Of a stretch of DNA of 43,004 nucleotides, positions 3,001 through 35,600 are shown in pieces. Made by a program: the position numbers and the translations under genes. Within the stretch, counting starts at the first letter, position 1; the number at the start of each line of letters is the position of its first letter. The stretch is from Acidimicrobiales bacterium. GTDB taxonomy: Bacteria > Actinomycetota > Acidimicrobiia > Acidimicrobiales > CADCSY01. The notes below the pieces were generated by a model. The model saw nothing but the letters and a program-made list of their open reading frames with translations. It ran no database searches and was not told the origin of the DNA. The stretch lies in the NCBI GenBank assembly GCA_036275955.1, contig DASUCO010000070.1, forward strand, positions 1 through 43,004, read 5' to 3'.

Positions 3001-3620
3001 CCAGCGTCGTCAGGCCCGAGTCGAGGAGCTGCTGGACCGGGACGAGGTCCACTTCCTGAATGAAGGTGGTGAGGTCGACGCCGAAGTCGGCGAAGCTCTC
3101 CGCGATGCGGTTGATCTCCTGCACGATCGGCAGGCCGCTGGCGATCGAGTTGAGCGTGACGTACTCGGCCTCGACGAGGTCGGCCAGCCGGGCGAGGCCG
3201 GCGCGCAGCAGGGCGTCGAGGTCGACCTCCTCCTCGTCGAGCTCCTCCTTCTCCAGCGCCTTGCGGCCGATGATGCCGGAGCTGACGAGCGGCGCGAGGT
3301 CGATCTTGTCCCAGTCGATCACCGAGTCCAGGGTGATGAGCCCCATGTCGATGAGCCGCGCGATGCTGAGGAAGCCCTCGTCGATCAGCCTGTCCGGGTC
3401 GACCACGTCGCCCACCACCACCAGGCCTTCGCGCACCATCGCCTCGAGGTCGATGCGGCCGAGCGCGTCGAGGTCGTCGAGGCTGAAGCGGTCGAGGTCC
3501 ACGGTGAAGGCGAGCGGGACCTTGATTTCCTGGGTGGCCGGGTTGTAGGTGACGCGCTGCCCGTCGGCCAGCAGGCCCTTGCGCGAGAGCTCCGCCACCA
3601 GGTCCTGCAGCGAGCGCAGG
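1..3620 (-). repeat. Array of at least 26 degenerate helical-hairpin motifs (h-h-x-x-G-h-x-[ST/D]-h-x-[DEQ]-h) that runs off the window
   Basis: Translated examples: LIDMGLITLDSVI, LLRAGLARLADLV, LLDSGLTTLDELF, LLENGVATLQQLI, LIDAGLVDASDFA, LVNSGLMSLGELI, LVADGLLAVEDLA, LIAAGYLSLKDLA, LLAGGHTTLADLV, LVASGVITADDFV, LIKEGFVRATDLA, LINAGLVAADDLI, LAEDGLLRMQDFN, LLDSGLASFESIV. Spacing is irregular (13-35 aa). I verified nt 2..420 and 3181..3300 codon by codon. Confidence 0.6.
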
Positions 3621-13852: not shown

Positions 13853-14186
13853 GGCCTCGGCGCCGCGCGCGCGAGCGCACGCGATCCGACGTGGACCGCC
13901 GACGTGTTCTGCAAGCAGCTGCGCAGGTGCACCTGCGTCATCCTCCCAATTTCGATCGAGGATGAAGAAGCGCTGCCGAAGGATGCCTAGGCCGAGGGCA
14001 AGCAGGCGCACGCGCGCCGCGCGTGGCCCGGTTTCCTCGGAGTTTGCGGTCCTCCCCGCTCCCCACCAAGATTCCGCGGAAAGGATAGTCCTCTGACATT
14101 TCTTTTGAAAGTCACGCGTTCGCCTAGCCGACCGGCGGCAACGCGATACGGGCTATCCAATCCACTCACCATCTAATCAAGCACTT

Positions 14187-14667: not shown

Positions 14668-17600
14668 TCATTCGTCGGTTTCCAGGAAGTCGACGAGCGG
14701 CCCGGAGCTTTTCTGGCGGGCCGCCCCCTGGAGGGCTTGACCCAATGGACCAAAGTCCTTAAAGGACTGCATCCACTCGATCACCCGCGCCGGCCCGGCG
14801 GCCGCGGGCTTCGCGGCATCGCGCGGCTTTTCGGACAACCGGTCTTTGTAGGCGTCGTGCCAGTCGACCAGGCCGGAGAGCCGTTCGCGCAGCTCGAACA
14901 GCGCGCTCGGCACGCCGCAGTTCCATTCGAGCGTCGACGATTCGACCAGCACGTCGGCGCCGCCGCCGCCGCGCAGCTGGTCGCGACCGTCGCCGCCGAC
15001 GAGGAGGTCGTCCGCCGCCCCGCCGCGCAGGTCGTCGTTGCCGGCGCCGCCGAAGAGCTGGAGGTGCGCCACCACCACGCCCGAGCCGTCGATCTTGTCG
15101 TTGCCCGCGCCGGCGTCGACCAGCGTGGACATGGTGAGGCCGTCCAGCTCCACGTGATCGTTGCCGCCCAGCGCGGCGACGTCCAGCGACGTGATGCCGG
15201 AGTAGTAGCGGGTCTCGCCGTTCACCGTGACGCGCACGATGCCGCCCTCGTCCTCGACGATCTCGATCTTGTCGTTGCGCTCGGTGCCGCGCACTTCCAG
15301 CGTGCGCTCCGATTGCGCCACTTCAAGCTGCCAGGTCTGCTCGGCTGCCCCGCCGTTGCCGTCCGACACCCGCAGCGCAAAGCTGTAAATCCCCGGCGCC
15401 GAAGGCACCCAGTGCAGCTCGCCCGTGCCCGCGTCGATCACCGCGCCCGCCGGCCCTTGCAGCAGGCTATAGGTGAGCGTGTCGCCATCGACATCGACTG
15501 CGTCCGCGTCGTACCGGTAGGGCGCCGCGGCCGGCGCAGCGAGGCCGCCGATGCGCACGCGCAGCTCGTCGTGCTTGTGCTTGCCGTCGTCCCACGCAAG
15601 CATCAGCGCGCCGCTCGCGTCGAATTGCGCGCGCACGCGATCGGCGCCGTCGGCATTCGCCTCCGCGATGGAGAACGTAGCCGCGTCCTTCTTCTTGTCG
15701 CCCTTCGCATAGAACGCGTACAGCGCGCCCGCCTCCAGCGTGAGGGTGCGGCTGGTGCCGTCGCGGTCCGCCTTGCCGAACGCCACCTGCGAGCGCGCGA
15801 GCGCCGCCGCGGCGTACGCCGGGTCGCCGGCGTCGATGCCGCTCACCGTGCCCCAGGTGTCGTCTACGCGATAGACACCGAATTCCGCCGGCGCGTCCTT
15901 CTCGCGCCCGAGGAGCGCGAAGCTCACCGTGCCGCCCGCCGCGCGGAACACGCTGTCCAGGTTGGCGCTCGAGCGCGGCGGATCGATGACGAGCGACGTG
16001 AGCGGCAGGGAGGTGAACTGCGGCCCGTCGTTCACACCAGTGATGGTGACCGTCACCGTGGCGCTCGACGTGGCGCCCGCCGAGTCCCGCATCGTGTACG
16101 TGAACGTGTCGAACGCGGTCTCGCCCACGGCGAGATGCTGGAAGTCGTCGCCGACTTCGTAGCGCACGCCGCCGCCGTCCGCGTCGATCGTCACCGTTCC
16201 GACAGTTCCGGCGAGATCGAGCGCCACCACGCTACGCGTGTCGCCGTCGTCTGCGTCGGTGTCGTTCGCCAGCACGTCGATGTGCACGCCGTGGTCTTCG
16301 TCCGTGCCGGCGACGTCGGCCTGGGCCTCGGGTGCATCGTTCACCGCACTCACGTCAATCGCCACCACATCGGTGTCGCTCAGCGCCGTCCCCGAACCGA
16401 ATCCGCCCAGGTCGTCGGTCGTGATCGTCAGGCTTGCCGCGCCGTTGAAGTTCAGGCCCGGCATGTACGTAAGACCATTGAGCGCGGCGTTGATCCCGGC
16501 GAGCGTGCCGCTGAAGGTCATCGCCGCGTCACCGCTGCCGTCGCCGCTCGTGAACGTCAGGCCGGCTATGGATCCAAGCGTGAGCTGTCCGTTGCCCGCC
16601 GCCAGCGTCACCTGGACAACCTCATCGCCCAGGACAGCGTTGTCGGCGTCGTCCACGTCCGCCACCGCGATCGCGTTGCCGTTGGCCGCAGAGAACACAA
16701 GCGCCGAGTCTTCGTTGGTGAACTGGGCGCCCGGCACGGTGTTCACCGGCGCGTCGTTAACAGGACCCACGGTGACCATCACCACGTCGGTATCCGTGAG
16801 CGGCGTGCCGAGGCCGAAGTTGCCCAGGTCGTTGGTCGTGATCGTCAGGCCCGCCGCGCCGTTGAAGTTCAGGCCCGGCGTGTAGGTCAGGCCGTTCAAC
16901 GCGGCGTTCACCCCGGCTAGCGTGCCGGTGAAGGTCATCGCGGCGTCGTCGCTGCCGTCGCCGCTCGTGAACGTCAGGCCGGCTATGGATCCAAGCGTGA
17001 GCTGTCCATCGCCGGCCGCGAGCGCCACCTGCACGACCTCGTCGCCCAGGACAGCGTTGTCGGCGTCGTCCACGTCCGCCACCGCGATCGCGTTGCCGTT
17101 GGCCGCAGAGAACACAAGCGCCGAGTCTTCGTTGGTGAACTGGGCGCCCGGCATGGTGTTCACCGGCGCGTCGTTCACCGGGAGCACGGTGATGGACACG
17201 CTTGCGTTGGCGCTCAGCGTGCCATCGCTGACCCGGTACTCGAAGCTGTCGATGCCGTTGAAGTTTGCGTGCGGCGCGTAGACGAACGAGCCGTCCGCAT
17301 GGAGCGCGAGCGTGCCGTTCGCAGGCCCGCTGACGAGAATCGCGCTGAGCGTGTTGGCCGGCAGGTCCGGGTCGCTGTCGTTGCCGAGCACGCCGCTTAC
17401 CGGCACGCTCAGCGTGCCGTCCTCGTCGAGGCTGTAGCTGTCGTTCTCCGCCAGCGGCGCCAGGTTGACCTCGTTGACCGTGACGGTGAGGGTCTCCTCG
17501 TCCCAGAGGTTGGGCGCACCGTCGTCCGTCACACGCACGGTGAAGGCATAGGCGCCGGGCCCTTGCGCCTCGGTCGGCGTCCAGGCGAACGCACCGGCTG

Positions 17601-20600
17601 CGGTAATCGTGGCGCCCTCGGGGGCACCCACCAGGCTGAACGTGAGACCGTTGGCGGGGACGTCCGGGTCGGTCGCCGCCGCGGTGAACGTCAGGGTTTC
17701 GAGCTCGTTCACCGTCTGGTCGCCGATCGCCGCCAGCACCGGCGCGGCGTTCACCTCGTTCACCGTGACGGTGATCGTCTCCTCGTCGAACAGGCTCGGG
17801 CTGCCGTGGTCGGTGATGCGCACGCGGAAGCTGTATTCGCCGGCCCCCTGCACCTCGGTCGGCGTCCAGGTGAAGACCCCGCTCGCGGCATCGATCTGCG
17901 CGCCTTCCGGCGAGCCGAACAGGCTGAAGGTGCGGCCGGTGTCCGGCAGGTCGGCGTCGGTGGCGAGCGCGGTAAAGGTGAGGGTCTCGAGCTCGTCGAT
18001 CGTGAAATCGCCGATGGCGGCGAGCACGGGAGCCACGTTCACTTCGTTGACCGTTACGGTAATCGTCTCTTCGTCGAACAGGCTCGGCGTGGCGTCGTCG
18101 CTCACCCGGATCGTGAACGTGTAGTCGGCGGGACCCTGGGCTTCGGCCGGCGTCCAGGCGAACCAGCCGGTCTCCGGGTCGATGGATGCGCCCGCCGGCG
18201 CGTCGATCAGGCTGAAGATGAAACCATCGGCCGGCGCGTCGAGGTCACCAGCGCTCACCTCGATCTCGAGCGTGTCGAGCTCGTTGATGGTGCGGTTGCC
18301 GACGAAGCTCATCTGCGGCGCGTCGTTGGTCCCATGGACGGTGACGCTGACGGTGGCGCTGCTCGTCTCCCCGGACGGATCGGCGATCGTGTAGCTGAAC
18401 CAGTCGGTGAGGGTCGCGCCGGCGGCCAGGTCCTGGAAGAGGCCGCGCACGTCGTACTCGATCCTGCCGTCCACCACCCTTAAGAAGGCGCCGGCCGACG
18501 AGGATTCCCCGACGCTGACGACGAGCGCATCGTCGTCCGGGTCGCTGTCGTTGGCGAGCACGTCGATCAGCACCGCGCCGCCGTCCTCGAGCGCGCTCGC
18601 CGCGTCGTCGGCCGCCAGCGGCGCGCTGTTGATGGCGTCGTCGAAGCGCACGTTGTCGATGGAGACGAACGAGCCGTGCCCGCCGAAGCCGAGCAGGTCG
18701 AAGTACAGCGTCGCCGCGCGCCCGGCCAGGCCGTCGAGGTCGATCGAGACGCTGATCGGCTCGGCAAGCGTCGCCGGCAGGACGTCGCCAGCCAGGCCGT
18801 GCAGCTTGACGCCGGCGCCGCGGCGGATCGTGCCGTCGGCCTGCACGTTGAAATAGCTGTCGGTCTGCGAAAGCGCCACGGTGCCCGTGAGCGGCGCGAG
18901 CGTCGCCGTGTCGAGCAGCGCGACCTCGAAGGCATCGCCGGGTCCGGCTCCGGGCGCGTCGAAATTTGCGCCGACGATGTCGAAGAGCAGATAACGGTGC
19001 CCGGGCAGGGTGAAGTCCTGCGTGATGCCGGAGTTGAGGCGCTCGTCTTCCGCGAGCGTGGCTGCGCCGCCGGCGAAGGAGACGCTGCCGCGCGCGTTCC
19101 AGCCGCTGCCGCTGTCGAATCCGCCGTCGAGGATGTGCTCGGCGTGCAGGTACGCAGTGCCAGTCCCGCCCGTGCCGGCGACGAAGTCCGCGGCCGTGGG
19201 CAGACGGCGCACGCCGGTGGCGAGGCTCTCGTGCATGACGCTGCCAGTGTCGTTCGCGTGCCGGGCGCCAAGCACATGGCCGTACTCGTGCAGGAGCACG
19301 GTCAGCACGTCCATGCCATCGAAGGCTTCGCTCGTCGCCGGCGTGGCGTCGGCATACCAGCCGTGCCCGGCGCCATCGTCGTCGAGCGTGATGATGGCCG
19401 AGCCGCCCGCCATCGACGTGTAGGCGAGCAGATCCCCGCCGAGGTCCGCCACCCGGACCTCTGCCGTCGCCATGCGCGAAGCGTCACCACCCAGAGCGGT
19501 CCAGGCGTCACGGGCGTGGGCGGCAAGAGTCGCAAGAGCGCCGAGCGAGCCATCGCCCGTTGACGTCCCCGTACCCGCGGCGAGCGGCGTGATCGATGCG
19601 GTACCCGTGCCGCCATCGTCATCGGTGATCGTGACCGTCACGCCGGTGGCGCCCTCGTGTACCACCACGGAGCCGGCATCGCTCAGAACGATGCCGTCGC
19701 TGAATGTCCAATCATAGCGGTGCGTGTCGAGCACGCCGGGATCGACGACGCTCGCGCTGAAGGTGCTGCCCTGCACGGCCACGCTCGCCGACGGCGCCAC
19801 GTTGAGCACCGTGAAGGTCGCCTCCTGCGCCGGGCCGACCTGCGACGGCTGCGGCGCGAGCACATACAGCAGGCGAACCTTGGCGGTGTACACGTCCGGC
19901 TGCGGCGTCGGACGGTCGTCGCGATAGACATGGCTCAGGGTCGTGCCGGCGTTGATCGGCAGCAGCTCGATCGGGATGCCGCTCTCGACCGTGCCGTCGC
20001 CCCAGTCGACCTCGAGCGCGTAGGCGTCGACCAGCAGCCCGACGCCGCGCACCGTGACCTCGATGCTCGCCGTGTCGCCTTCGTTCAGCGCGGCGCCGGA
20101 GAAGGCGAGCTCGATCGGATCGATGATGATGGTTTCGCTCACCTCGATGCGCGCGCTGTCGCTTGCCGTGCCGCCGTCGTCGTCCGTCGCCTCGAACGTC
20201 GCCGTGTAGCTTCCCGCCGCCAGGCTGAAGCCGGCGGCCGCAGTCGAGCGGCTCGCCACGATCGCGCCGGCCTCGTTGGTGATGGTCCACTGCACGTCGT
20301 GGGTGTCGAACGCCCCGGGGTCGTCGAACTGGCCGGTAAGGGTGAACACCTGGCCCGCCCGCACCGCGCGGTCGGGGCCCGCGTCCACGTCGGGCGCGAC
20401 GTTGTTCACCGTGACCGTATCGCTCGCGTCGACGAAGTCCTCGTCGTCATCGGTGACGCGGACGCTGACCCCGTACGGATCGGCCGGCGTGCCGCTCGGA
20501 TCGTCGTCCGCGTAGACATGCGAGAGCGGCACGGTCTGCGCCGCGCCGCCGGTGAGGAATACCGTCTCGACCGTGCCGTCGCCCCAGTCGACCTCGAGCG

Positions 20601-23600
20601 TCAGCTCGTCGGACTCGCCGGCGTCGGACACCTCGGCGAACAGCTCGACGAGCTCGCCTTCGTCGACGCTCGTGCTGGCGAAGTCGAGGAAGAGCTCGGG
20701 CGCGGCGTTCGCCACGGCCACGGTGAGCGCTTCCTCGACTTCGCCGGTGTCGTCGTCGACCAGCGTGACGGTAACGTCGTAGACGTCGTCCTCGCCCGGC
20801 GCTTCGTCGTCGGCATAGACGTGCTCGAGGACGAAGCTCATGTCCTCATGCGTGAGGAACACGGTCTCGGGCCCGCTGCCGTCGCCCCAGTCGACCAGCA
20901 GCTCGAAGGTGTCGGTGCCCGGATCGGCGAAGAAGCCCGCCAGCACCACCGTGTCGCCCTCGATCGCATCCGGCGTGAGCACCAGGCCGGAGAATTCCGG
21001 GGCGACGTTGCGCACGGTCAGCGTGGCCTCGCCCTGGGCGGCCCCGGTGTCGTCGTCGGTGAGCTTCACTGCTATGGTGAAGCTGTCCTCCGGCGTGCCG
21101 GTGTCGGGGTCGTCGTCGGCGTACGTGTGCGAGACGGAGAAGCTGCCGTTGCCGTCGGCAAACGGCCCGAGGTCGATGAGCTCGGTTTCGCCGTTGCCCC
21201 AGTCGACCTCGAGCTCGAAGGTGTCCTCGAACCCCTTGTCGGTGAACGTGCCGCTCAGCGTCACCGTGCCGCCTTCGTCGATCTCCGTGGCGCTGAGCTG
21301 CAGCTCGCCGAGCTCGGGCGCCTCGTTGTGCACGACCGGGTGGAGGATGACCTCGTCGACGCCGAGATCGTCGTCCTGCACGGTGATGCGCAGGTCCATG
21401 ATGTCGGCCGGCGTGCCGGTCTGCGGATCGTCGTCGACGTACTTGTGGCGCAGCTCGAAGGTGCCTTCCTGCGAGCCGAGCGGACCCTGGTTCTCCAGCG
21501 TATCGAGGGTGCCGTCGCCCCAGTCGATCGTGATGGTGAAGGTGTCGTCGGGGCTGACGTCTCTGTATCGCCCGGTGAGCACCACCTCCTCGCCCTCGAT
21601 GAGGTCGCTCGGATCGACGAGCACCTCGAGGATCTCCGGCGCGACGTTGCGCACATCGAACCGGGCTTCGCCGGCGCCGGCGTTGGCGCCGCTCACCTTC
21701 ACCGTCTTGGTGTCGGACTCGGTGTTGCTCGGGCTGTCGTCGGTGAAGCGCCGCGTGAGCGAGGCGTGCGTGCCGCCGGCGGCGACGGTCACCTTCTGCA
21801 CCACGCCGTCGCCCCAGTCGACGTCGAGCACGGTCTCGACCGAGGAGTCGAAGGGCTTGAAGTCGATCAGCAGCGTGGCCAGCTCGCGCTCGTCGACGTC
21901 GTCGATGTCGAGCTGGATGCGCGGCGCGAAGCGGATGTCGTCGAGGAAGTAGACCTGGCTCAGCGTCGAGGCCGGATCGTCGAGCCCGGGCAGCAGGTCC
22001 TCGGGGCTGAACGAGACCGCGATGGTGTCCTCGAGGTGCACGTGCTTGAACTCGAGCATCGCCACCTGGCCGCGGTATTCCTCCGGCACCTCGACGAAGT
22101 AGCGGTTCTTCTCCCAGAAGCCGGGCGTGAGCTGGACGAGCACCGGGTCGGTGGCCGCGGCCGGCGCGCCTTCGCCGATCGTGGTGGGCAGGAAGCGCAC
22201 CTCGATCGCGGCGTCCTTCGTCAGCATCACCGGCGAGAAGATCTCGAACGAGAGCACCTCGGCGTCCGCCGGCACGTAGAGCCGGTTGTGGCGGATGGTG
22301 TCGAGGTCGACGACCTGGTCGAGCAGGTCCTCGAAGAACCCTTCCATGCCTTCGGGGATGCTGGCGCCCATCACGTCCTTCAGCACCTGGCCGGCGCCCA
22401 TGAGGAGCGCCATGTCGCCCGGCTCGCCGAAGACCTTCTCCAGCAGCTTCTCGATGCCGCTGCCGATGCTCTCCTTGACGCCCTCGATGCCTTCGTCGGT
22501 CTTCAGCGCCTCCTCGAGCGGCGTCCCCTGGATGCCCATCTCGACCAGCTTGCCGACGAGCTCCTCGAGCTTCTCGTACGCCTTGTTCGACTGCTCTACG
22601 CGCTCCTTGTTGGGCGAGTCCTCGCCCCAGTTCTCCTCGTACCAGCGCTTGTAGCCGTCGGAGCTCGAGTCGTCCGGCGGGCGCGGCAGGCCGAAGGCGT
22701 CGTGCTTCAGCTTGTTCGAGGCGAACTTGACCGCCTTCTCGCCGACGAAGTCCCAGATCTTCTCGGCGAACGGCTTGAGGAACAGGTTGCGCCAGTCGGT
22801 CTCGATGCTGAACAGCCCGGCGATGTCGAAGTGCTCGCCGAACGCGTTGATATGGAAGCCCTCGCCGCCGTGGAACGACCAGCCGGGCAGCTCGTACGAC
22901 GCCGGGAAGCGGCCCTTCTCCTCGTCGTCGCCGAAGAGGTGCGTGAGCAGCGACTGCCGTCCGCCGTGCTCGAAGCCGCCGTTGAACACGCTCGCCACCA
23001 CCTCGGCGCCCTTGGTGACCTCGGTGTTGTCCTCGGCCGCCGGGTCGACGCCCTCGAACGCCTCGTCCGGGCGGTCCTCGTCGCCGCCGCCGGTCGCGCT
23101 GTAGTACCAGCCGGCGGTGATGCCCTCCCAGATGGCGCCTTCGAGCTTCCAGGCGTCTTCCATGTCCGCCAGCTCGGGAGACAGCGGCAGGCTCGTATAC
23201 CAGGGCTCGGCGTTGAAGCGGTAGGTCGGCAGCCCGACCGCCCGCGCCATGAGCCCTTCGTCGGTGATGCGGCGGAAGATCGGGTTGTCGTCGAACTCGA
23301 GGATGTCGAGGTCTACGGTGCCGGCGTACCACTGCCAGACGCGGCTGTGCGGGCCGCCGAGGCCGAAGTCCTTCACGGTCTCGAGGCCGAGCGCGTCGGC
23401 GAGGAAGTCGAGCCCCGAGGGCAGGGTGAAGCCCAGCCGGTAGTCGTCGCGCTCGAAGCCGGCCGAGCCGTCGAGCTTGAGGTTGATGTCCGCGCCCTCG
23501 ATCGCCACGCCGTTGGGCGTCAGGGTGGTCGAATCCATCGGCGCGAGCGTCTGGTAGTAGTTGTCGGCGAAGCCGATGTTCGACCAGACCTTGACGTCGG

Positions 23601-26600
23601 GATCCTTGAAGTCCGCGTACGGGATCGGGTCGATGGCGAGGCCCATGCGCTCGGCGTACTCGAGTCCCTTGTTGACCACGCGCATGACGGGCGCGAGCCC
23701 GGGCACGAGCGACAGCCCCGCGCTGATCACCTGCACGATCGTCTTCAGCGGGACGTTCAGGCTCTCCTGCTCGAAGTCGTGCGGATCGAGCGTGGTCATG
23801 TGGATGTCCTGCACGTCCGGGAAGTGCACGCCCATGCGCTGCAGGATCTCGCTGTTCACCACCGTGCCGCGGCTGTGGCCGATGAAGTGCAGCGGCGAGC
23901 CGAAGATCTGCCCGCCGCTCTCGGCGTCGAGCGCCACCAGCGAGGCGAAGAGCGAGTCGGCCGCCGCTTCCGAGAACCCGCTGTCGCTGACGTCGGACTC
24001 CTTGTTCCAGTCCGACACCAGCACCACGGCCTTGCCCGCCTCCAGCGCGTCCTTGCCGGTCTTGTTGTTCAGCCGGTCGACCCATTCGCCGGTGAGCTTG
24101 TTGTAGGACAGCACCACCCCGCCGCCGCTCGCGTCCGCGATCAGCTCGCCGAGCGCCATGAACGCCGCCGGCTGCTCGTACGCCTGCTCGCCGAACGACA
24201 TGCCGAACTGGAAGCCGTGCGTGAGCACGGTGACGCCGTTGTACGGCGCCCCGGTGTCGATCGGCTGCGCGACGAAGCTCGCCGACTCGCGGTACACGTC
24301 CTCGCCGACGATCAGCTCGATGCCCCAGTAGTAGCGGTTGCCGGCGGTGAGCGCATGGCGCACCGCCTCCGGCAGCAGCATGCTCTCGGTGCCCGCCTCG
24401 ATGTCCTCCGAGGTCCAGATGCGGTGCGGGTTGCGGTCGGCGCCCTTCCAGCCCGGCGCGGCGTCCCAGAACTCGTCGCGCGAGCGCGGCTCGTCCCACG
24501 GGAACAGGCCGTCGCCCGACGGCTGCGAGCTCACGTACACGCGCACCGTGTAGTCCTCGGTGCCGAGCAGGCTCGTGTCGATATGCCACTGGAACTCGAG
24601 GTCGCCGTTCTCCTGGTGCACGCGCTTCATGCCGGTGGGCGCGATCAGGTCGATCGGGTCGGTGACCTGCATGCCGATGCCCTTGGTCAGCTCGCCGATC
24701 GGGATGGCGTCGAAGTGGATGTCGGCGTGCCGGTCGATCGGCTGGTGCTTGAGCACGTCGTCGCCGAGCGATTTCGACGCGCGGATGAACTCCTCGACAT
24801 CGAACACCACGACTTCGCCGGGGCCGCGGTAGTTGGCGTAGAGCTTGAGCCCGTCGGAAGAAAGCTCGAGCTCGTTGACGAACGTCAGGCTGATCGGCGA
24901 GGTCGCGGCGATGAACTCGGCGTCGCCGAAGGGATCGCGCACCAGGCCCACCTTGCCGCCGGTCTCGTGCGTGTCGTCGTATTCGATGAAGGCGTTGGGG
25001 TTGCCGGTGCCGAGGAACCACGGGAAGCCGTAGTCGGCGACGAAGGCGTAGCTCAGATCCGGCAGCACGGCGACCTCCGCCGCGTTGCGGATGCCGAGCT
25101 GGAACCGCTCCTCGATGCGCTGCTTCATCGACAGGTCGATGAACTTGACGTCCGCGGCGAAGGCGAGCGGGCTCGCGTTCGTGACCTCGATGGTGCCCAG
25201 GCCGCGCTCGATCTTCAGCCGCGACGTGAACATCATCTTGTCGGGGTCCGCGGTCGCGCGGATCGAGAACGGCTCGAGATCGCCGTCGAGGCGCCCGATC
25301 ACCTCGTGCCAGCGCTGCGTGTTGGGCTCCTCCGGCCCTGGCGCGTCGGCGATGTCGATGTTGACGACCAGGATCTCGCCCTTGTCGCGGCCGCCGGTCA
25401 CCCAGGAATTGGCGCCGCCGACGAGCACGCTGTCCGGGGCCGCGACGTAGAGCTTGGTGTCGTCGGCGTTGACGGCAAGGGCGCTGATGTAGCCGCGCGC
25501 CGTCTGCAGCCCGGCGATGACGTCCACCACCTGGTGCAGGGTGTCCGCGCCGGCGCGGATGTCGATGACGAAGATCTCGTCGCGGCCGGCGACGTAGAGG
25601 TAGCGGTCGAACGGATCGATGGCGATCGCCGTCGGCACGACGTCGTTCGGCAGGGCGATCCGGTCGATCTCCGGCGTCTCGCCGTCGGCGTCGACCCGCT
25701 GCAGCGCCACCGTGTCGATGATGGCGATGCCCTCGCGCGTCGCCACGTAGGCGCGCGTGCGGTCCTTGGTCGCCACGGTGTCGACCTGCATGCGCGCGCC
25801 GAGGTCGATTTCCTTGACCACGACGTCCTCGGCGTCCTCGTCGTCGGCGCGCGCCACGTCGATGACGCGCAGCTTGTTGTCGAGGTGGCTGCCGATGAAG
25901 CCGTAGCCGCCCGGGTCGTCGAGGATCGCCGCCGGGCTCGCGATCCAGCGCGTCTCTTCCTCGCCGCCCAGGCCGAGCTGGCTGAAGGGCCGCTCGACGA
26001 TGATCTTCGACAGGCCGAGCAGCACCTGCTGCGGCACCTGGACGACCAGCCGCTCGGGGCTCGCCTCGATGAAGTCCTCGCCCTCGACGATGACGTCGGT
26101 CGCGCCCATGCTGAACACCACGCGCAGGTCGCGCGGGTCGCTGCCCGGGCTCTCGCCGCCCACCTCGGGCGCGTCCGGGTTGATGAACCGCTGCCCCGTG
26201 ATCTCGAGCCGGCCGTTGCCCTGCGCGTCGACCGAGTAGGCGACGTCGTCGATGATCGGCGGCCGGCCCGGCGTGTCGGGCGACACCTGCGGCAGCGTGA
26301 CCCGCACGCGGTCGGTGTGCTGCGTGATGTCGACGACCGTGACCTCGCGCGTGACCGACTTGTTCGACCAGGTGCTGTACGCCTGGATCTCGGCCACGCC
26401 CTCGGCGAAGGGCAGGATGACCTGGTCGAGATAGATGATGAGCCCGATGATCCCGGTCGAGGCGACCAGCAGGTAACCGGGATTGAGGATGTTGCCGAGG
26501 TGGACGCTGACGTCGCGCAGCGGCTGGTTGGCGCGCGCCATCAGGATGTTGCCGCGCTCGGAGAGCCCGGGCCACGGCGGCGAGCTGGTGCGCGCGTAGC

Positions 26601-29600
26601 CGTCGTCTCCCACCACGCCGGTCTCCATCGCCGCCCAGCGCGTGTGCATCACGCCGTGCTCGTCCGGCACGTCGACTTCCTGGAAGAAGTAGACCTTGTC
26701 GCCGGCGGCGAACGACGCGTCCACCGGCACGGCCACCTGCACCGGCTGCTCGAGCCGCCCGGCGCCGATGTCCAGGCGGAAAGCGCCGGCGAAATCGAAG
26801 ATGTCGGGCACCGGGATGGCGAGATCGGCCTGGTCGATCTTTTCGATCGTCACGGGGGTGTCGGCGGACAGCTGGCCGGGGCCGATGGAGACGCGGTGGC
26901 CGTCCGCGCCCTGCACCACGCCGCCCTCGGCGCCGACGATGGCCGGCCCGCTGACCGGCGCCGCCACGCGCACCGGCACGACCTGCTCGCCGGACTTGTG
27001 GATCACGGTGACGGTGGTCTCGCCCGCGCCGACGGCATGGATCAGCCCGTCGGCCGATACGCTGATCACCGAGCTGTCGCCCGTGAAGTAGCGCGTGCCC
27101 TGCGCCGCGCCGGTGACGAAGGTGGAGGTGCCCCACATGACGCTCATCTGCTTGTCCGCATCGGGCGCAAGCGTCAGCGTGTCGGGATACGCGTCGATGC
27201 CGAAGAAGTACACCGACACGTCGCTCGGGCGCACCGGCGCGCCCACGGCTACCGCGGTGGCCGCGGCGAGCGAGCCGCGCTCGGCGAGGAGGACGGTGGT
27301 GCCGTCGGCGAGGCCGGTCAGCATGCCGTCGGCCGACAGCCCGGCGACGCCCGCGTCGAGGGTGCGTGCGTTCACGTACCAGAGCGGCAGCGCGACGTCC
27401 GCCTGGTCGGCGAAGTCGCCGAGCAGCCGGATGGCGGCGCTCGCCCCGGCGCCGAGACGGACACTGCGCTGGGCGAAGTCCAGGCCGATGAGCTCGGCGT
27501 TGCTGACCTCGATCTCGAGCTCGGCGAGCGCCGAGACGTTGAAGCCGTCGTCGGCGATGATCTCCAGCTGCGCCGCGCCGGAGAAGCCGGCTTCGGGCGT
27601 GAAGACCACCGACTGTCCGTCCGCCGTCAGCGCGGCGCTGCCATGCGTCACGCCGGCGACGCGGTAGTACACGGCGTCGCCGTCCGGGTCGCTCGCCACG
27701 CTGCCGAGGTCGATGGTGACCGGCAGGCCTTCGTGCGTGAGGACGTCGGGCAGCACGGCGTTCACGGCCGGCGCCTGGTTGGCGAAGAAACCGTAGTTCG
27801 CGAACAGCACCTGGCGCGCACCGGTATCTCCCGGCGGCAGCAGCGCCGAGTCCTGTCCGTCGACCGCGCCATCGAGGTTGAGGTCGCCGCCGGCGGCGAG
27901 GGCGAGGGTATAGGCGCCGCTGCCCTCGACGCGCAGCTCGTACAGGCCCTCCTCGCTGATCGCGAATATCGTGGCGGAGAGCTGAGTCAGGCCCGGCGCG
28001 ACCAGGGTGGCATCGCCTTCCACGGCGGCGCGCAGCAGGAGCACCTGGCCGGCGGCCGCGGCGATCTCGCTCGCGCGCGCGCTGAACGCGTAGCTGTCGC
28101 TGCCGCCGGCGCCGAGGTCGCCGCTGAACGTGCGCCCGGTGAACTGGGCGAAGCCGCCGAGGTCGGCGTCGTCGCCGATGTCGAGCGCGAGCGACAGCTT
28201 GCCGTCGGTGTAGGCGTAGCGCTGGCCGGCGCCGTCCGCAAGATCGCGCGCCGCCACGAGGCGGCCGTCGGCGTCGTAGCGATAGACCAGCGCCCCGCCG
28301 TCGGGCGCGGTGACGCGGACGATGCGGCCGTCCTCGTCCAGCACGAAGCGCAGCGCCGCGCCGTCGGCGCCGGTGATGCCGCTGTCGCTCACGAACACTC
28401 GCGCACCGGAAGCGGCGCGGATCTCGGTGACGCCGCGCTCGGCGTCGACGGTGTAGCGCGTGCTGTCGGGCGCGGTGAGCGTGTAGACCCGCGGCTCGTA
28501 CGCCTGGCCGGTGGACGCGTCGTAGTACTTGCCGCCGGCGCGCGTGAGGAGGCCGCCCTCGGATTGCAGCGTCCAGCCGTGCGCGCCATCGGCACGCCAT
28601 GCGGCCCGGTAGAACGTCGCCGGCCCGACCCGCTCCGCGACCGGCTGGAAGCGGAAGCCTTCGCGCGCGCCGTCGGGCAGCGTCACCACCGCGCGCGTCG
28701 CGTCCGTGAATCGCTCCATGTTCAGGTCGACGGCCACGTCGCGCAGCGCCAGGCGCCAGCCGTCGCCGAACGATCCCTGCGTGTCCGAGGCCAGGCTGTC
28801 ATAGCGGCGTTCAAGCGTGAGCTGGAACCCGTCCAGATCCACCGCGAGGTCGGTCTCGGTACGCAGCACCTGTTCCGTCTTCTGCGCGCTGCGGATCTCG
28901 ATCTGCGCTTCGGTGGTGGAGAGGCGCCCGCCGATGTCGCGAGCGGTGAGCTCGAGCGAATAGAAGCCGTTGACGAGCGTGCGCGGGTCGATGGTGGCGA
29001 GCGCGCCGCTCGCGGCCGCCTCGCCCGAGGCGAGGACTTTCACCGTGCCATCCGCCGCGCGCAGCTCGAGGCGCCAGAAGTCCAGGTTCGCGTCCTGCAC
29101 CGAGGCCGAGACGGCGGTCGGCGCGGCGACGATGGCGCCGTCGATCGCGGCGAGGGAGACGACCGGCGCCAGCTTGTCGGCGGCGTCGCGCACCTTGAGC
29201 TCGGCCTCGGCGCGGCCCTCGATGCCGTCCGCGTCGACGGCGATGGCGGTAAGGTCGAGCTTGCCCGGCGCGCCGGCGACGAGCGTGCCGCGGCCGTTCG
29301 CGTCGAGCGCGATCTCCTCGCCGCCCGCGAAGAGGCGCAGCGACGCGATGTCGGCCAGGCTGTCGGCGATCGCGTGCACCAGCACGCGCTGGCCGGGCAG
29401 CGCGGGGAAGCGCGGCGTGAGCTCGATGCGCACGGCCGGCGCCACCGGCTCGAGGCTCGCGCGCATGACGATGGTCTGCCGCGCCGCCGCGACGCCGTCG
29501 CTCGCGACGAAGGTGACGACGTGGTCGCCGGCCTGGCCCGGTCCCGGCGTCCAGGTAACGAGGCCGGTATCCGCGTCAAGCGTCGCGCCTTCGGGCAGGT

Positions 29601-32600
29601 CCAGCGCAGTGAACGTGAGGACGTCGTCGGCGTCCGGATCGCTCGCCGTCAGGGTAAAGCTGCGCTCCTCGCCGAGGAGGAAAGCATGGCTCGACTCGTC
29701 GAGCGACGGATCGCGGTTCACGTCGGCGACGCGCAGCGTCACCGCCATCGTGCCGGTGCCGCCCGAGGTGTCCTGCGCGGCGAAGGTGACGACGTGCACG
29801 CCGGCCTGCTCGAAGGACGGCGTCCACACCAACTCGCCACGCGTCGGCACGAAGAGCGCGCCTTCGGGCAGCCCGAATGCCGAGAGCACGAGCGGCTCGG
29901 CGTCGGCGTCGGCGGCGACGACCGTGAAGCGGATCTCGGCGTTCTCGCGCGCGAGCTGCGTGAACATCGGCACGAACGCCGGCGCCTGGTTGGCGTTGGT
30001 CACGGTGATCGCAACCGTGTCCGAGCTCGCGCCGGCGCCGTCGCTCGCGACGAAGGTGATGGCGTAGGTGCCGGCGCGGTTCAGCGCCGGGCGCCAGCTG
30101 AACACGCCGGTCTCGGCATCGAGCGTGGCGCCGGCCGGCAGGCTCTCGGCGCTGAACGTCGGCGCGTCGCCGTCGGCGTCGATCGCCTGCAGCTGGAAGG
30201 TGAGGAGCTCGCCCTCCGCGACCGTGCGCTCGCCGACCGGCAGCAGCAGCGGTGCGCTGTTGGCCGCGCGCACGACGAGGTCGAATGTCGCGCTGGTGGC
30301 TTCGGTGCCGTCGCTGGCCGTAACGGTGACCGTGTGGCTGCCGGGCGCGGTCGGCACCCAATGGACGACCGCCCGGCCATAGACCCCGGTGGAGATCACC
30401 GTCGCGCCCGGCAGGCCGGCGACCGAATAGGCGAGCGGGTCCTGGTCCGCGTCGCTGACGCGCACGGGAAGAAGGAACGGCTGGCCGAGCACGGCGACCG
30501 CGTCGCCCAGGTGCTCGAGCACCGGCGGCTCGTTCTCGCTCTCGACCGAGACGACGAAGACGAAGCTCGACTCGAGGGCGGGACCGGTGCCGTCGCCGTT
30601 ATCGCGCGCGACCAGCTTCACGGCGTGGTCGCCCCGGTCACCGGCATGGGGCGCCAGCGTGAAGACGCCCGTGCCGTCGCCGTAGTCGGTGAACTGCATG
30701 AAGGCGGGCAGCGGGAAGCCCGGCTGCTCGCTCGTCGCAGAGAGGACGACCGGGTTGCCTTCCGGATCGGTGGCGCGCACCGTGAACTGCATGGTGGCGT
30801 CGCGCTGGACGGTCGCGTTCTGCACCGCCTCGATCACCGGCCGGCGGTTGAGGTTCAGCACCTCGACCGGCACGACGATCTCGTCGCTCAGGCCGCCGTC
30901 GTCGGTCGCGATGAAGCGCAGCTCGTAGGTGCCGGCCTGCGCGTGCGTCGGCGTCCAGGTGAAATCCCAGGTCTCGGTGTCGAAGCTCGCGCCCGCGGGC
31001 AGGAGGTCCGCGGCGACGCTCACCGTGGCAGCCGTGTCCGAGAACCGGATGAGGCTGCCGTCGGCGGCGCGGAACGGCCGGCCGTAGAACGGGTTGTCCG
31101 GGTCGAAAGCGAAGAGGTTGATGACGAGCGGCTGGCCCTCGTACGTCTCCCAGCCGTCCTGCGGATCGAACACCGGCGCGCCGTTGGCGGCGCCGACCGT
31201 GAGCCGCATGACCGCGCTCGCGCTCTGCGCGCCGTCGCTGACGCGCAGCGGAATGTCGTAGACGCCCGCCTGCGTGAAGTCGGGCGTCCAGTCGAAGACG
31301 CCGGTCTCGGGATGCAGCGTGGCGCCGAACGGCAGGCGCGTCGACGAGAAGCGCAGCTCCGCCGCGCCGTCGCCGCGCGCGTCGAGCCGCAGGCGGATGG
31401 GGTCGCCTTCCTGCGCAAAGCGATCGGCGGGCTTGACCAGCACCGGCGGCTGGCGGCCCTCGGCGACGAGCAGCGTGACGCTGGCCACCGTCTGCGACAG
31501 GTCGTCCGCCGCGAAGAGCCGCAGCTGGTAGGTGCCGGCGGCGTCGAAGCCCGGCGTCCAGGAGAAGAGGCGCGTGGCCGGATCGAAGCTCGCCCCGGCC
31601 GGAAGGCCGTCGGCCCAGAAGGTGAGCGCGTCGAGGTCGGCGTCCGCGGCGACGACGGCGAAGTCCATCGCCTCGCCCTCGCGCCCGAGCGCCTCGTCGG
31701 GGAGTCCGTGGAAGCGCGGCGCCTCGTTGCCGCCCTCGATGTCGAGCACGAAGCGCTGCAGCGTCACCGCGCCGCGGCTGTCGAAGGCCTGCAGCACCAC
31801 CGTGGCCTGCGCCGGCACCAGGGCCGGCACCTCCCAGGTCACGACGCCGGTCTCTGCGTGCACCGTCATGCCGTCCGGCGCGCTCAGCAGGTGGTACACC
31901 ACCGCCTGGCCGTCCGGGTCGGCCGCATTCGCGTCATATGCGAACGGATTGCCGGCGACGGCTTCCAGAGGGGGCGTGCTGTCGAAGAGCGGCGCGCGGT
32001 TCGGCGCCGCGCCGGCCGAAACGCCGGCGGAGAATTCGACCCGGCGGCGGTCCGGGCTCTCGACCGACACCGTGCGCGCGGCGCTCGACTGGCCGGGCAG
32101 CAGGCGCCCGTCGGGCGGCAGCGAGCCGGAGAGGTCGATCAGCCAGCGGCCGTCATGGCTCTGGCCGGCCGCGTCGAGCGGCACGCCGGGATAGCCGTCG
32201 AGCGGATCGAGCGTCAGCAGCACCGGCAGCACGAGCGCGCCGTCGCTCGTGTTGGTGATGCTGACGTCGAAGGAGACGGTGCCGAGCGAGCGGTCGGAGC
32301 GGGTGCTGCCGAAGCTCACGTCGATCAGCCCGGTGAGGTCGCCGAGCGCGGTGAAGCCGGTGGTGTAGTCGGCGGCGAGGCGCAGGCCGAAGCCGCTCGA
32401 CACGGTGTCCTCCACCGTCAGCGTGTAGTCGTCGGCGAGCAGGCTGTGGAAGGTCACCAGCGACGTGCGCGTCGCCGCGTCGTAGATCACGCCCTGCGCC
32501 GCCTGCAGGCCGGTCGTCTCGCCGACCAGCCGGTAGCTCGCGGCATCGAGCACGCTCGCCGACATGTCCTGGTCGAAGCGCACCGAGATGAACGGCAGCG

Positions 32601-35600
32601 GCAGCAGCACCGTCGAGTCCGCCGGCACGCTGGTCGACAGCACCTTCGGCGCGACCGCCGGGCTCACCACGTCGACCTGGCCGGACTGGCTCACCAGCAC
32701 GCGGCCGTCGCGCGTGGTGGCGACCACGTCGCCGCGCGAGCCGCCGCGCGCGAGCGCCACTTCGCGCAGCGTCGCCGTGTCGACCATCGTCAGCTCGCCG
32801 GAGTTGTGCGAGACGAAGAGCAGCGAGTCGAGCGGCGAGCCCTCCCGGCCGAAGGCGAGCGAGTCGACGCCTTCCTCGAACTCGAGCATCACCTCGGCGC
32901 GCGCGCGGTCGGTGAAGCGCACGACGTGCGTGCGATCGGGCCAGGTGGTGGCCCAGAGATCGCCCTGCGCGTCGAAGGCGAGGCTGCCGACGCGCAGGTT
33001 GCCGTCGCGGCTGTACTGCGTGAACAGGCCGCTCGCCGGATCGAAGGTCTGCACGCCGCTGTTCGTGGAAACGAACAACAGCCCGGTCTCCGGCTGCACG
33101 GCAAGCGCCATCGTCACGCCGTCGCCGAAGCGGTTGACGATCGTGCCGCTCGCCGGATCGAGCTGCACGAGCGCGCCGCCGCCGGTGGTGGCCCACAGGC
33201 GGCCCTCGGCGTCGAACGCCATGTTGAACACCGGCACGTCGAGGCTCGCCCACGGCGCGCCCGCCGTCCCGCCGTCGCGCCCGAAGCGCCAGATTTCGCT
33301 GCGGCTCGCGCCGCCCGACACCAGCACGTCACCGCTCGGCGTCTCGACGATCGCCATCGGGCCGATGCCGGACTGGCTCGCGTCGATACCGGTGGCGAAT
33401 GCCTGGGCGACGAACGGCCGCAGCACGCTGTCGAATTCGGAAAGCCGCGTCGCGGGCGCGGCCGCCGGGATGCCGGCTTCTGCCGCGGCGAACAGAGGAT
33501 TCTGCGAAGGTTGGGGCAACGGCGCCGGCGCCTGCCCGAAGTCCGGCGGCGTCGTCCGTTCGACGCTCGGCAGCGCGCCGAGGTTGATGCCCGAATCGTC
33601 GGCGGTGGCGTTGACGCCCGGCGCCGGTGCTTCGCGGTTGCCGGCGGAATCGGTGGCGAGCGCGAGGAATTCGTAGGTGTGGCCGGCCTCGCCCTGGAAC
33701 ACCGCGCTGCCGGACGCATCGGGCACCTGGCGCTGCCAGATCTTGAAGTCGCCGCCGTCGGTGGCGACGTAGAGCGTGACGTGCTTGAAGCCCGAGCCGC
33801 CGGCATCGTCGGTCGACTGCCAGCTCACCTGGAAATCGCTCGTGGCGCCGATGCGCTGCACCGCGACGTGGCTGGTCGGCGCCGCGCCGTCGACCATCTG
33901 GGTGAGCACCAGCGTGTCTTCAGCCGCCTGCCCCTCGAACAGCACGCGCGCCGATGCGCTGATCTCCGCGCCGGTGGCGATCTCGGCCTTCGGCTTGACG
34001 CTGTACGAGACGAAGCCGGCGCCGGCGCCGAGGCCGTCGTTCGGCGCGAGCAGGCCGCGCGTCGCGTCCTGGAGCACCTCGCCGGTCAGCGGGTCGATCG
34101 CCTGGATGAGCCATGTCGCCTGGTTCGGCGTCTGGAAGCGGTCGATGCCGGCGCTGACGCGCAGCACGAAGCCGCGCGTCTGCACGAAGTCGATCTCCGT
34201 CTGGAACAGCGCCCTGCCGTCGGGCACATCGATCGAGATGTCGCCGAGCTTGATGTCGCCGAGCTCGAAGCTGTGGCCGTCCAGATCCGTGTCGAGCTGC
34301 GTCACGACGCGGATCTCGTTCACGTAACGCGAGGCGCCTTCGGCGTTCTGGAAGCCGATGCTGTAGGGCAGCGCGGCGTCGGCCGGCAGCCAGCCCTGCG
34401 TGTCGAACGTCTGCGGCCCCGTGATGCTGGCGGCGCGCCCGGCCGCGCCTTCCTCGGTGAAATAGCGGCTGAAGTCGAGCTCGGCGAACTCGTCGCCGTC
34501 GACCGGCGCCGGCCCGCCGACCTGGAAGTCGGTCGGCAGCCCCGCGCCGCGGTTGGGGAAGCCCATCCACGGCACGTACACGCGGAACGCCTCGAAGTGC
34601 GTCGGGTTCGACAGTCCGAGGTCGTAGTCCTCGAACTCGGGCAGCAGCGGCACGGGCACCCAGCCCTCGAAGCACTCGCTCTCGCGGAAGTCCATGTACT
34701 CGATCGGCGCCGGTCGCGCCTGGTCGTGCCCGTAGAGCTCGCGCAGGCGCTCGAAGAAGCCGAGGAGGTCGGCGTCGCTGCGGATCTCGCTCCCGGCCGG
34801 GCCGAACAGGATCCCCGAGGCGAGCGTCGCCATGAGGCTCACGATGTGCTGCTTCTCGCGGATCGGCGGCGCGTCGCCGTCGTCGCGCAGCAGCCCCGCG
34901 TCCTCCAGCGCCGCGAGGTACAGGTCGACCCAGGCAGCCTCGTCGCCGGCGAGCGCGACCAGCGGCGCGGGCGCCTCGGCGTCGTCCAGGATCGCGTCGC
35001 GCAGCGCGCGCGCCTCGGCGCTCTGGTGCGCCACGTACTCCTCGCGCGTCATCGTCGTCGCGGTGGCGAAGACGTGGAAGCGGAACGGGATGAAGGGGAT
35101 GCGGCACTCGTCGGGCACCGCCTCGTTCTGGTTGTAGAGGCCGACGAAATCGATCTCGGAAAGCGCGTTGCCGACGCCCGCGTCGATCTCCTTCACCGTG
35201 TCGATCACCGCGTCCCACCAGTCCTCCAGGCCCTCGGCGCCGTCCTCGAGCAGGTGGTCGTGCTCGGGAAACGCGGCCGCCATGCGCGCGCGGAACGCGT
35301 CGAACGCGCGCTCGTGCAGCGCGCGCAGCCCGGGATAGGTGATGACGTTGAACGAGAAGCCCGAGAAGCCGTCGGCCGGCTGGTCGAGGAGGTAGCCCGA
35401 GGTGGTGAGGTGGCCGTCGGTATTGACGATCGACTCGAGCTCGAGCCACGGCACTGCCTCGTTGGCGCCGCCTTCGGCGCCCTCCGGCGTGCCGCGCACG
35501 TTGGTGAAGAACTCGAGGTACGGCAGGCCGTACAGGATCGGGTTGAAGTTCAGCTGCGGCACGCCGACCTGGAAGAAGGTGTACGGCGCGTCCAGGTTGC

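Follow-up and report, generated by a model that had tools for sequence, protein, structure and literature searches.

A predicted serine hydrolase domain, distantly related to the pancreatic lipase family, within a giant protein of an Acidimicrobiales bacterium

The window analyzed here, a 43,004-nucleotide stretch of DNA from an Acidimicrobiales bacterium (contig DASUCO010000070.1, assembly GCA_036275955.1), contains a giant open reading frame (ORF) at 14668..42996 on the minus strand. It encodes 9442 residues within the window and carries a hydrolase domain (23077..24252, aa 6249–6640) that homologues, AlphaFold modeling, Foldseek, and profile matches relate to pancreatic lipase and phospholipase A1 (PLA1); all features described below lie on the minus strand unless stated otherwise. 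The GC contents at codon positions 1, 2, and 3 (0.69, 0.48, and 0.94, respectively) identify the ORF as real coding sequence. No stop codon is present upstream of its first Met inside the window (42996–43004), and the ORF opens in the middle of a repeat unit, with about the first 100 residues resembling a truncated copy of a repeat seen again at aa ~205–300. No signal peptide or N-terminal motif is observed at the start of the ORF as read in the window, and the encoded megaprotein probably extends past the window edge, with a truncated N terminus and a full length of more than 9442 residues. Because the ORF lacks an upstream stop and begins inside a repeat unit, the residue numbers used here are relative to the window. 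A Pfam scan of the megaprotein identified CARDB, Big_9, He_PIG, cadherin-like, PKD, and RHS domains, with RTX repeats at the C terminus.

Four motifs of the hydrolase domain, which an earlier note on this DNA had likened to those of the lipase family PF00151, are present in the ORF at the places reported. The first core strand carries TVLTHGF (24211..24231, aa 6256–6262; strand E7-11 of the model described below; VLTHGF starts at aa 6257, nt 24228–24211), which aligns to IIHGF of pancreatic lipases, corresponds to the HGF of PF00151, and would contribute the oxyanion-hole region. The nucleophile elbow LHFIGHSRG (23866..23892, aa 6369–6377; GHSRG starts at aa 6373) contains Ser6375 (codon 23872–23874) and aligns to VHVIGHSLG. 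TTLDPHD (23776..23796, aa 6401–6407; TLDPHD starts at aa 6402), in which the T and D are invariant, contains the putative catalytic acid Asp6404 (codon 23785–23787) and aligns to ITGLDPA of PF00151. Strand β7 (E226-233) comprises FADNYYQT with Asp6478 (23548..23571, aa 6476–6483), and HSRVWQWYAGT (23317..23349, aa 6550–6560; GGPHSRVWQWY starts at aa 6547) begins with His6550 (codon 23347–23349). The Ser-Asp and Asp-His spacings of 29 and 146 residues given in the earlier note are correct, and the reference values of 24 and 87 are recovered from an alignment of real pancreatic lipases (S171, D195, and H282 in precursor numbering). GxSxG occurs six times in the megaprotein, and six occurrences are expected from its composition, so the motifs alone would be weak evidence; GHSxG (0.09 expected) and HGF each occur once, and it is homology that lifts the motifs beyond chance.

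Searches with aa 6249–6640 as the query identified 90 homologues (E values down to 1e-89), almost none of which has a Pfam domain over the hydrolase region; those that are named are all either “hypothetical” or named for their type IX secretion system (T9SS) tail alone. A profile built from 39 full-length domains and run against 1.84 billion representative proteins matched 3023 clusters (at 50% identity) at E ≤ 1e-3 and 1185 at E ≤ 1e-30, in proteins of 287 to 7720 residues, some of which have two or three copies of the domain (tandem copies are present in P0091–P0093). An elbow pattern, run against 185,579 species genomes, matched 186 loci; the locus comparisons reported here concern the best 79 of these, and the genomic residue counts concern 70 loci plus the window. 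The best 79 loci come from Burkholderiales, Sphingomonadales, Rhodobacteraceae, Planctomycetota, Verrucomicrobiota, Cyanobacteria, and others, and the closest relative among them is 55% identical in the hydrolase domain. No description of the family was found in literature on the GHSRG motif, on bacterial PF00151, or on giant genes with lipase domains, and no characterized member was found among the homologues or in the literature searched. As judged from these sequences, the domain belongs to a large bacterial family that is unrecognized by Pfam and NCBIfam.

The proposed catalytic residues are highly conserved in this family. In an alignment of the homologues (A1), Ser is present in 82/86, Asp in 87/88, and His in 71/76 sequences. 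In the 39 full-length domains (A2), W6330, H6370, G6377, T6401, D6404, G6496, H6550, and G6629 are invariant, and H6260, G6261, S6334, G6340, F6371, I6372, G6373, S6375, V6380, S6382, R6387, D6478, and Y6557 are at least 90% conserved. Among the 70 genome loci and the window, the T, H, and G of TVLTHGF are retained in 71/71, Asp6404 in 71/71, His6550 in 70/71, D6478 in 69/71, and Y6480 in 70/71; Ser6375 is likewise present in 71/71, a count that is biased by the presence of this Ser in the locus search pattern, while the Asp and His counts are unbiased. A few cyanobacterial relatives have GFSRG in place of GHSRG.

An AlphaFold2 model of the domain made with the family alignment (pLDDT 83, pTM 0.85) has alternating strands and helices. 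Ser6375 (domain residue 127) is positioned after strand E121-126 and before helix H129-143, i.e. at a nucleophile elbow; Asp6404 (domain residue 156) directly follows strand E150-155, which is β6; and His6550 (domain residue 302) opens helix H301-313, with pLDDT values of 92–98 at the three sites. The order Ser6375, Asp6404, His6550 is the nucleophile, acid, histidine order of α/β-hydrolases, and no conserved acid is present at the end of β7 in alignment A1. Comparison of the window model with the Protein Data Bank (PDB) using Foldseek returned Proteus and metagenomic lipases, thioesterases, Candida antarctica lipase B (CALB), and a Burkholderia lipase at E values of ~1e-4, with Foldseek probabilities of 0.87–1.00 against solved lipases, thioesterases, and esterases (the best being 1.00). 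The domain thus modeled has an α/β-hydrolase fold.

A compact relative, a 229-residue Bacteroidota T9SS protein that lacks the insertions of the window domain, gave a model of somewhat higher scores (pLDDT 87, pTM 0.89). In a Foldseek search with this model, PF00151 structures account for 16 of the 21 top matches, below 3lp5 and 3fle; they comprise PLRP2, LPL, hornet PLA1, pancreatic lipase, and PLRP1 (TM scores 0.46–0.57, E values 5e-5 to 9e-4).

Sequence profiles lead to the same family. A search (hmmsearch) of 177,635 distinct PDB sequences with the family profile gave 10 matches at E ≤ 10, nine of which are PF00151 chains: PLRP2 of rat, guinea-pig (chimera), horse, and human, PLRP1 of human and dog, horse pancreatic lipase, and hornet PLA1, the top match being rat PLRP2 (1bu8; E = 2.1e-4). 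The alignments span HGF, DW, HxIGHSxG...E...R, and TxLDP, with FxD and the His helix in register at insignificant scores; the His6550 motif was placed by HMMER itself against CNHHRSIEYY of 1gpl in the expected register, at −0.1 bits. Alignment of profiles with hhalign, using 20 aligned pancreatic lipases and pancreatic lipase-related proteins, gave a probability of 95.2% (E = 2.9e-8) for a 105-column alignment that begins at the HGF strand and ends at the LDP Asp, compared with 85% for a single pancreatic-lipase sequence. That single sequence served to retrieve the real pancreatic lipases, PLRP1, and PLRP2 (PF00151), which are at most 95% identical to it. The hhalign alignment extended beyond the Asp (mact 0.01) has zero confidence, is partly misregistered, and was not used for equating the histidines.

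Because these three independent and unbiased tests (the PDB profile search, hhalign, and Foldseek with the compact relative) agree, we assign kinship with the pancreatic lipase family: the domain family is a sister family of PF00151, distantly related to it. PF00151 takes in pancreatic lipase, PLRP1 and PLRP2, the lipoprotein, hepatic, and endothelial lipases, vespid venom PLA1s, and PS-specific PLA1s. PF00151 itself is found below threshold in 10 of 91 family members (best E = 2.6e-5), ahead of Thioesterase and DUF900, and the PF00151 gathering cut-off of 27 bits is not reached, with scores of at most 18.2 bits (P0072) among the members whose scores were read, so that the domain is not a formal PF00151 member. 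The proposal of the earlier note, a PF00151-type Ser-Asp-His arrangement in an α/β-hydrolase domain, is borne out by the profile, hhalign, AlphaFold, and compact-relative results; its assignment to PF00151 itself holds as detectable common ancestry and not as formal membership, and its claim that the motifs reproduce their PF00151 context holds from HGF to the LDP Asp; the His motif could not be aligned with confidence.

The features shared with PF00151 extend along the domain. In both, a strand ends in HGF, DW lies on the next core strand, and the elbow follows the pattern h-H-h-I-G-H-S-x-G, in which Glu and Arg stand 8 and 12 residues past the Ser; an F-x-D strand is also common to both. The catalytic Asp lies 24–29 residues past the Ser in T-x-L-D-P, directly after β6. 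In pancreatic lipases the catalytic Asp directly follows strand β6, whereas most α/β-hydrolases have the acid after β7. The putative catalytic His likewise opens a helix, in which Y and S/T follow it by 7 and 10 residues; His6550, R+2, Y+7, and T+10 fit the register of the PF00151 motif C-x-H-x-R-S-x-x-Y-Y, although at an insignificant score. An extra β-hairpin behind helix A, the hydrophobic helical insertion past the Asp, and a long extension at the C terminus set the domain apart from PF00151; it lacks the colipase-binding domain, and it is bacterial and embedded in giant multidomain proteins.

Compared with its compact relatives, the window domain has three insertions, located after the Asp, before the His, and, as a C-terminal extension, after the His helix. 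The first, between β6 and β7 (23617..23760, aa 6413–6460), is hydrophobic and helical (helices 169–180 and 187–202; pLDDT ~75) and is occupied in a minority of the homologues (16–31 of ~87 aligned in A1). It contains the Kyte-Doolittle 19-residue maximum of the domain (1.77, at ~aa 6429), which is one of only four places in the megaprotein where a 19-residue hydropathy window reaches at least 1.6. The hydrophobic insertion is kept in the proteobacterial and planctomycete giant-protein loci (inserts of 65–114 residues), while the cyanobacterial loci have inserts of 28–36 residues without hydrophobic character. The second is a 41-residue, low-confidence loop (23350..23472, aa 6509–6549; pLDDT 49–60) between the last core strand and the His, at the topological position of the pancreatic lipase lid; very few homologues have residues there (A1), and the compact relative has ~5. 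The long Asp-His spacing, from which the earlier note had anticipated an insertion or lid, is explained by these two elements.

Taken together, the putative triad, its conservation, and the predicted fold indicate that the domain is very likely an active Ser-Asp-His serine hydrolase/esterase. Of the possible substrates, lipids or membranes provide the best single reading, i.e. a lipase or phospholipase, which we consider probable, although by no means assured; we infer this because lipases and PLA1s are the only families recovered and because a conserved hydrophobic element lies beside the active site. Ser6375, at the β5-helix elbow, would attack the ester carbonyl, with His6550 acting as the general base and Asp6404 orienting the His. 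By analogy with human pancreatic lipase, in which the oxyanion hole is formed by Phe77 and Leu153, the backbone NH groups of Phe6262 (of HGF) and Arg6376 would form the oxyanion hole. The aa 6413–6460 insertion and the aa 6509–6549 loop probably cover or gate the active site, or anchor the domain at a lipid interface. The domain would most likely serve to hydrolyze lipids or membrane phospholipids of other cells or of debris, as one of a tethered set of degradative enzymes.

A number of observations weigh against a lipid-directed relative of pancreatic lipase. With aa 6200–6640 alone, no Pfam match was obtained at E ≤ 10, and matches to NCBIfam and PDB sequences were at noise level only; the result that the earlier note had named as refuting its proposal, the lack of an α/β-hydrolase match to a hidden Markov model (HMM), is thus literally obtained for the window sequence by itself (Pfam, NCBIfam), and only family profiles reveal the kinship. 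We attribute these empty single-sequence searches to a gap in the libraries rather than to absence of the domain. Foldseek TM scores for the window model are only 0.25–0.46, and zero PF00151 structures are among its top 50 matches; the low TM scores are probably due to the large insertions. The confident profile alignment ends at the Asp, and the equivalence of His6550 with His263 relies on conservation and topology. Some residues near the catalytic center also differ: PF00151 has Leu after the Ser, where the domain has Arg, and DPA, where the domain has a conserved DPHD. PF00151 has a disulfide-bridged lid, whereas the domain has no cysteines, and so no lid disulfide, and the PF00151 pancreatic and LPL branches carry a PLAT domain (PF01477), which the hydrolase domain lacks. 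All of the retrieved pancreatic lipases carry PF01477, and none was detected by Pfam in the whole megaprotein or in the module downstream of the domain. Secretion genes are absent from the window, and the gene neighborhoods of the stand-alone relatives (in Adhaeretor mobilis and a soil metagenome) contain nearby peptidases and give no further clue to function. Finally, the T9SS and dockerin tails of stand-alone relatives and the conserved downstream module would suit a polymer esterase equally well.

The last point leads to the main rival, in which the domain is an active serine esterase acting on a non-lipid substrate, such as acetylated polysaccharide, peptidoglycan O-acetyl groups, a polyester, or a cutin-like polymer, with the downstream module providing binding. 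The triad and fold evidence applies equally to such an enzyme. Stand-alone relatives have T9SS tails, dockerins, and a galactose-binding-like domain, as do many polymer degraders; an NGxFE...GW module follows the hydrolase in many members, one of which has a faint CBM_4_9 match; and conserved polar residues (Arg6376, His6406, Asp6407, and Glu6383) lie near the catalytic residues. However, unbiased profile and fold searches recover only PF00151 lipases and phospholipases, other lipases, and thioesterases, a strongly hydrophobic conserved insertion adjoins the catalytic Asp, and the downstream module has no detectable similarity to carbohydrate-binding families in Pfam or NCBIfam. We regard a non-lipid polymer esterase as possible, but unlikely.

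The likelihood that the domain is a pseudoenzyme, a non-catalytic relic retained for binding or as a structural part of an adhesin-like giant protein, is low. Inactive members of PF00151 are known, e.g. pancreatic lipase-related protein 1 and the yolk proteins, and two cyanobacterial relatives (P0032 and P0034) have Gly in place of the nucleophilic Ser (GFGRG and GMGRG) and are themselves likely pseudoenzymes. Against this, Ser and Asp are present in all 70 loci and the window and His in 69 of the 70 loci, and the HG of the oxyanion region and the elbow glycines are kept; the conservation of the triad across phyla argues for selection on catalysis.

Weak matches to Thioesterase in 15 family members (best E = 9.8e-4), and the thioesterases among the Foldseek matches, raise the prospect of an acyl-transferring or self-processing module, thioesterase- or transacylase-like, that would modify a part of the giant protein or set it free, or would attach lipid to a partner. 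The Thioesterase matches are, however, confined to the region of the nucleophile elbow (e.g. profile positions 61–101), those to PF00151 are better and longer, and the Pfam scan of the megaprotein reveals no carrier-protein or acyl-carrier context, making this proposal highly improbable. Chance co-occurrence of the motifs in a very long protein without any hydrolase domain, for which the unexceptional GxSxG count and the lack of a library HMM match to the window sequence might be cited, is refuted by the thousands of homologues that keep these residues, the confident α/β-hydrolase model, and the significant lipase profile and fold matches.

Returning to the lipid-directed hydrolase that we favor, its setting in the giant protein is itself conserved. 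In nearly all of the best 79 loci the domain lies in an ORF that leaves the 10-kb upstream flank (at least 3450 residues) and runs 2000–3000 residues downstream; given the 10-kb flanks on the loci, the giant ORF lengths are lower bounds. Collinearity of these ORFs with the window protein extends over ~aa 3100–8500 and is observed in L001–L060 (e.g. L004, L009, L018, L033, L048, and L049), from Burkholderiales, Sphingomonadales, Rhodobacteraceae, Planctomycetota, and Verrucomicrobiota. Because the ORFs are collinear, we consider the hydrolase a fixed station of a conserved giant architecture in Proteobacteria, Planctomycetota, and Cyanobacteria rather than a shuffled cassette, and the sequence comparisons indicate a conserved giant-protein family that spans phyla.

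Directly downstream of the hydrolase, a conserved unannotated module (21892..23034, aa ~6655–7035) recurs across loci and phyla, with the motifs DNTEVTK, VFNGGFE (VFNGxFE), GRFPxSYELPGWSFHGG, ALLMGAGxxL, THNRLYVP, and YFLDDIRF, and with a long helical insert that Novipirellula lacks. Neither this module nor the region upstream of the domain matches a Pfam or NCBIfam family, the only signal being a faint one of lactonase type (E = 0.12); the “YVTN propeller” and “lectin jelly-roll” labels that the earlier note had given to the flanking regions find no HMM support in Pfam or NCBIfam. Further downstream is a metzincin-type zinc motif, HEYGHVLGARH (19258..19290, aa 7903–7913), with weak matches to Peptidase_M10 and to an NCBIfam metalloprotease family (myxosortase-dependent metalloprotease), followed by SVMH, a possible Met-turn; the motif recurs in 13/79 loci, mostly Burkholderiales, mostly ~1520–1650 residues downstream of the hydrolase.

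RTX nonapeptide repeats (14947..15054, aa 9315–9350; a HemolysinCabind match) lie near the C terminus of the megaprotein and suggest type I secretion, which would likely be the export route of this giant repeat-rich exoprotein. A transmembrane-like hydrophobic segment, GYLLVASTGIIGLIIYLDQVILPF (26383–26502, aa ~5500–5539), lies in the middle of the presumably secreted megaprotein and is another of the four places with high hydropathy.

A second giant gene (2..14011), immediately downstream of the megaprotein gene, encodes at least 4670 residues and leaves the window at its left edge. It starts with a MRFESLEPRLLLSADL motif, followed by an Endonuclease_NS domain (PF01223; nt 12752–13441, E = 3.4e-35, with a DRGH motif) and, further on, by RTX repeats, and is otherwise mostly without Pfam matches. 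A nuclease in the same ORF as the hydrolase, ~460–540 residues past the Ser motif, is present in 14/79 loci, mostly cyanobacterial. These fused loci (L061, L063, L064, L065, L067, L068, L070–L073, L075, L076, L078, and L079) include, besides the cyanobacterial majority, one Bacteroidota locus and three metagenome-assembled genomes of unassigned phylum. The fused subfamily mostly has GFSRG rather than GHSRG and lacks the hydrophobic insertion, and the fusion accounts for the name “endonuclease G” given to a family member by one source. Two long plus-strand ORFs, 23–5602 and 5729–13990, were considered as neighboring genes and rejected as shadow frames of the minus-strand gene: their GC contents are 0.94–0.96 at position 1 and 0.68–0.70 at position 3, and they have no Pfam matches. 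The plus-strand ORF 19657–39741, opposite the megaprotein gene, has the same shadow-frame GC signature.

The stand-alone relatives carry T9SS tails, dockerins, planctomycete extracellular motifs, and, as noted above, a galactose-binding-like domain. In planctomycete stand-alone proteins (P0060, P0064, and P0065), an N-terminal LE(D/P/A)RxLL motif immediately precedes the hydrolase domain; this motif, which also opens the second giant gene of the window, may be a secretion or sorting signal. The RTX repeats, the nuclease, the metzincin motif, and the T9SS, dockerin, and planctomycete tails of the stand-alone relatives argue for an extracellular location in the company of degradative enzymes.

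Other known hydrolases resemble the domain in part. The best Foldseek matches of the compact relative are 3lp5 (Lactobacillus plantarum) and 3fle (Staphylococcus epidermidis SE_1780), with E values of 2e-6 and 8.5e-6 and TM scores of 0.47–0.57; they also give the lowest rmsd with the window model (4.4–4.8 Å over 155–168 columns). Described as “putative cell-surface hydrolase”, they are small extracellular bacterial α/β-hydrolases of unknown substrate, and they differ from the window domain in being small stand-alone proteins that are absent from the PDB profile matches. Family I.1/I.2 lipases (Proteus mirabilis 4gw3 and Burkholderia 2lip), which are secreted bacterial α/β-hydrolase lipases with a lid, head the Foldseek list for the window model (E ~1e-4), with TM scores of 0.27–0.37, identities of 11–15%, and no sequence-profile match. 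In family I.1/I.2 lipases the catalytic acid follows β7, unlike the conserved acid of the window domain, which follows β6. An RTX-type family I.3 lipase, in which C-terminal RTX repeats follow the catalytic domain and export is by a type I system, was also considered, given the RTX repeats, and was rejected, there being no I.3 lipase in the PDB sequence or profile matches or among the top 50 folds.

The nearest concept to the hydrolase domain is the α/β-hydrolase (ABH) effector domain of Vibrio MARTX toxins, a phosphatidylinositol 3-phosphate (PI3P)-specific phospholipase A1 (PMC4640098). The likeness is one of concept, an esterase/lipase-type α/β-hydrolase embedded midway in a very large RTX-containing secreted protein; no sequence or fold match to MARTX ABH was obtained from the hydrolase domain. 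Membership of the MARTX toxins was rejected, since the Pfam scan of the megaprotein contains neither a cysteine-protease autoprocessing domain nor MARTX A/B/C repeats. The megaprotein has instead an adhesin-type Ig-like scaffold with only generic C-terminal RTX repeats, and translocation into eukaryotic cells is unsupported.

Enzymes of the kind represented by the domain are already known; the novelty lies in a large bacterial sister family of PF00151 missed by the libraries, in its distinctive insertions, and in its fixed place in giant exoproteins beside nuclease and metzincin modules. A wider reading, which we put forward tentatively and think unlikely to hold as a whole, would make the hydrolase a fixed station of a multi-phylum exoprotein family (Burkholderiales, Sphingomonadales, Rhodobacteraceae, Planctomycetota, Cyanobacteria, and Verrucomicrobiota), apparently many thousands of residues long. 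Its members would be adhesin-like stalks bearing a pancreatic-lipase-like esterase, a metzincin-like protease, and a non-specific nuclease, and would work as a tethered device for contact-dependent digestion or attack; on the same tentative reading, the bacterial family would fill a long-standing gap as the prokaryotic sister, or the source, of the animal pancreatic lipase/PLA1 family.

The annotation of giant bacterial proteins mostly stops at repeats with no assigned role, and a conserved, probably active enzyme domain provides an experimental handle on them; the same architecture is present in cultured Sphingobium, Pseudacidovorax, Ramlibacter, Novipirellula, Tundrisphaera, several Rhodobacteraceae, Tolypothrix, and Calothrix. 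Annotation as lipase-like hydrolases could be extended to many secreted bacterial proteins whose present label is “hypothetical” or only “T9SS sorting domain-containing”. In the context of lipase evolution, the family represents a bacterial lineage that shares the post-β6 catalytic Asp, an unusual feature by which pancreatic lipases are known. That the hydrolase recurs together with a non-specific nuclease and a metzincin motif suggests multi-enzyme exoproteins, which, if true, would bear on ideas of how bacteria with giant genes prey, compete, and scavenge nutrients.

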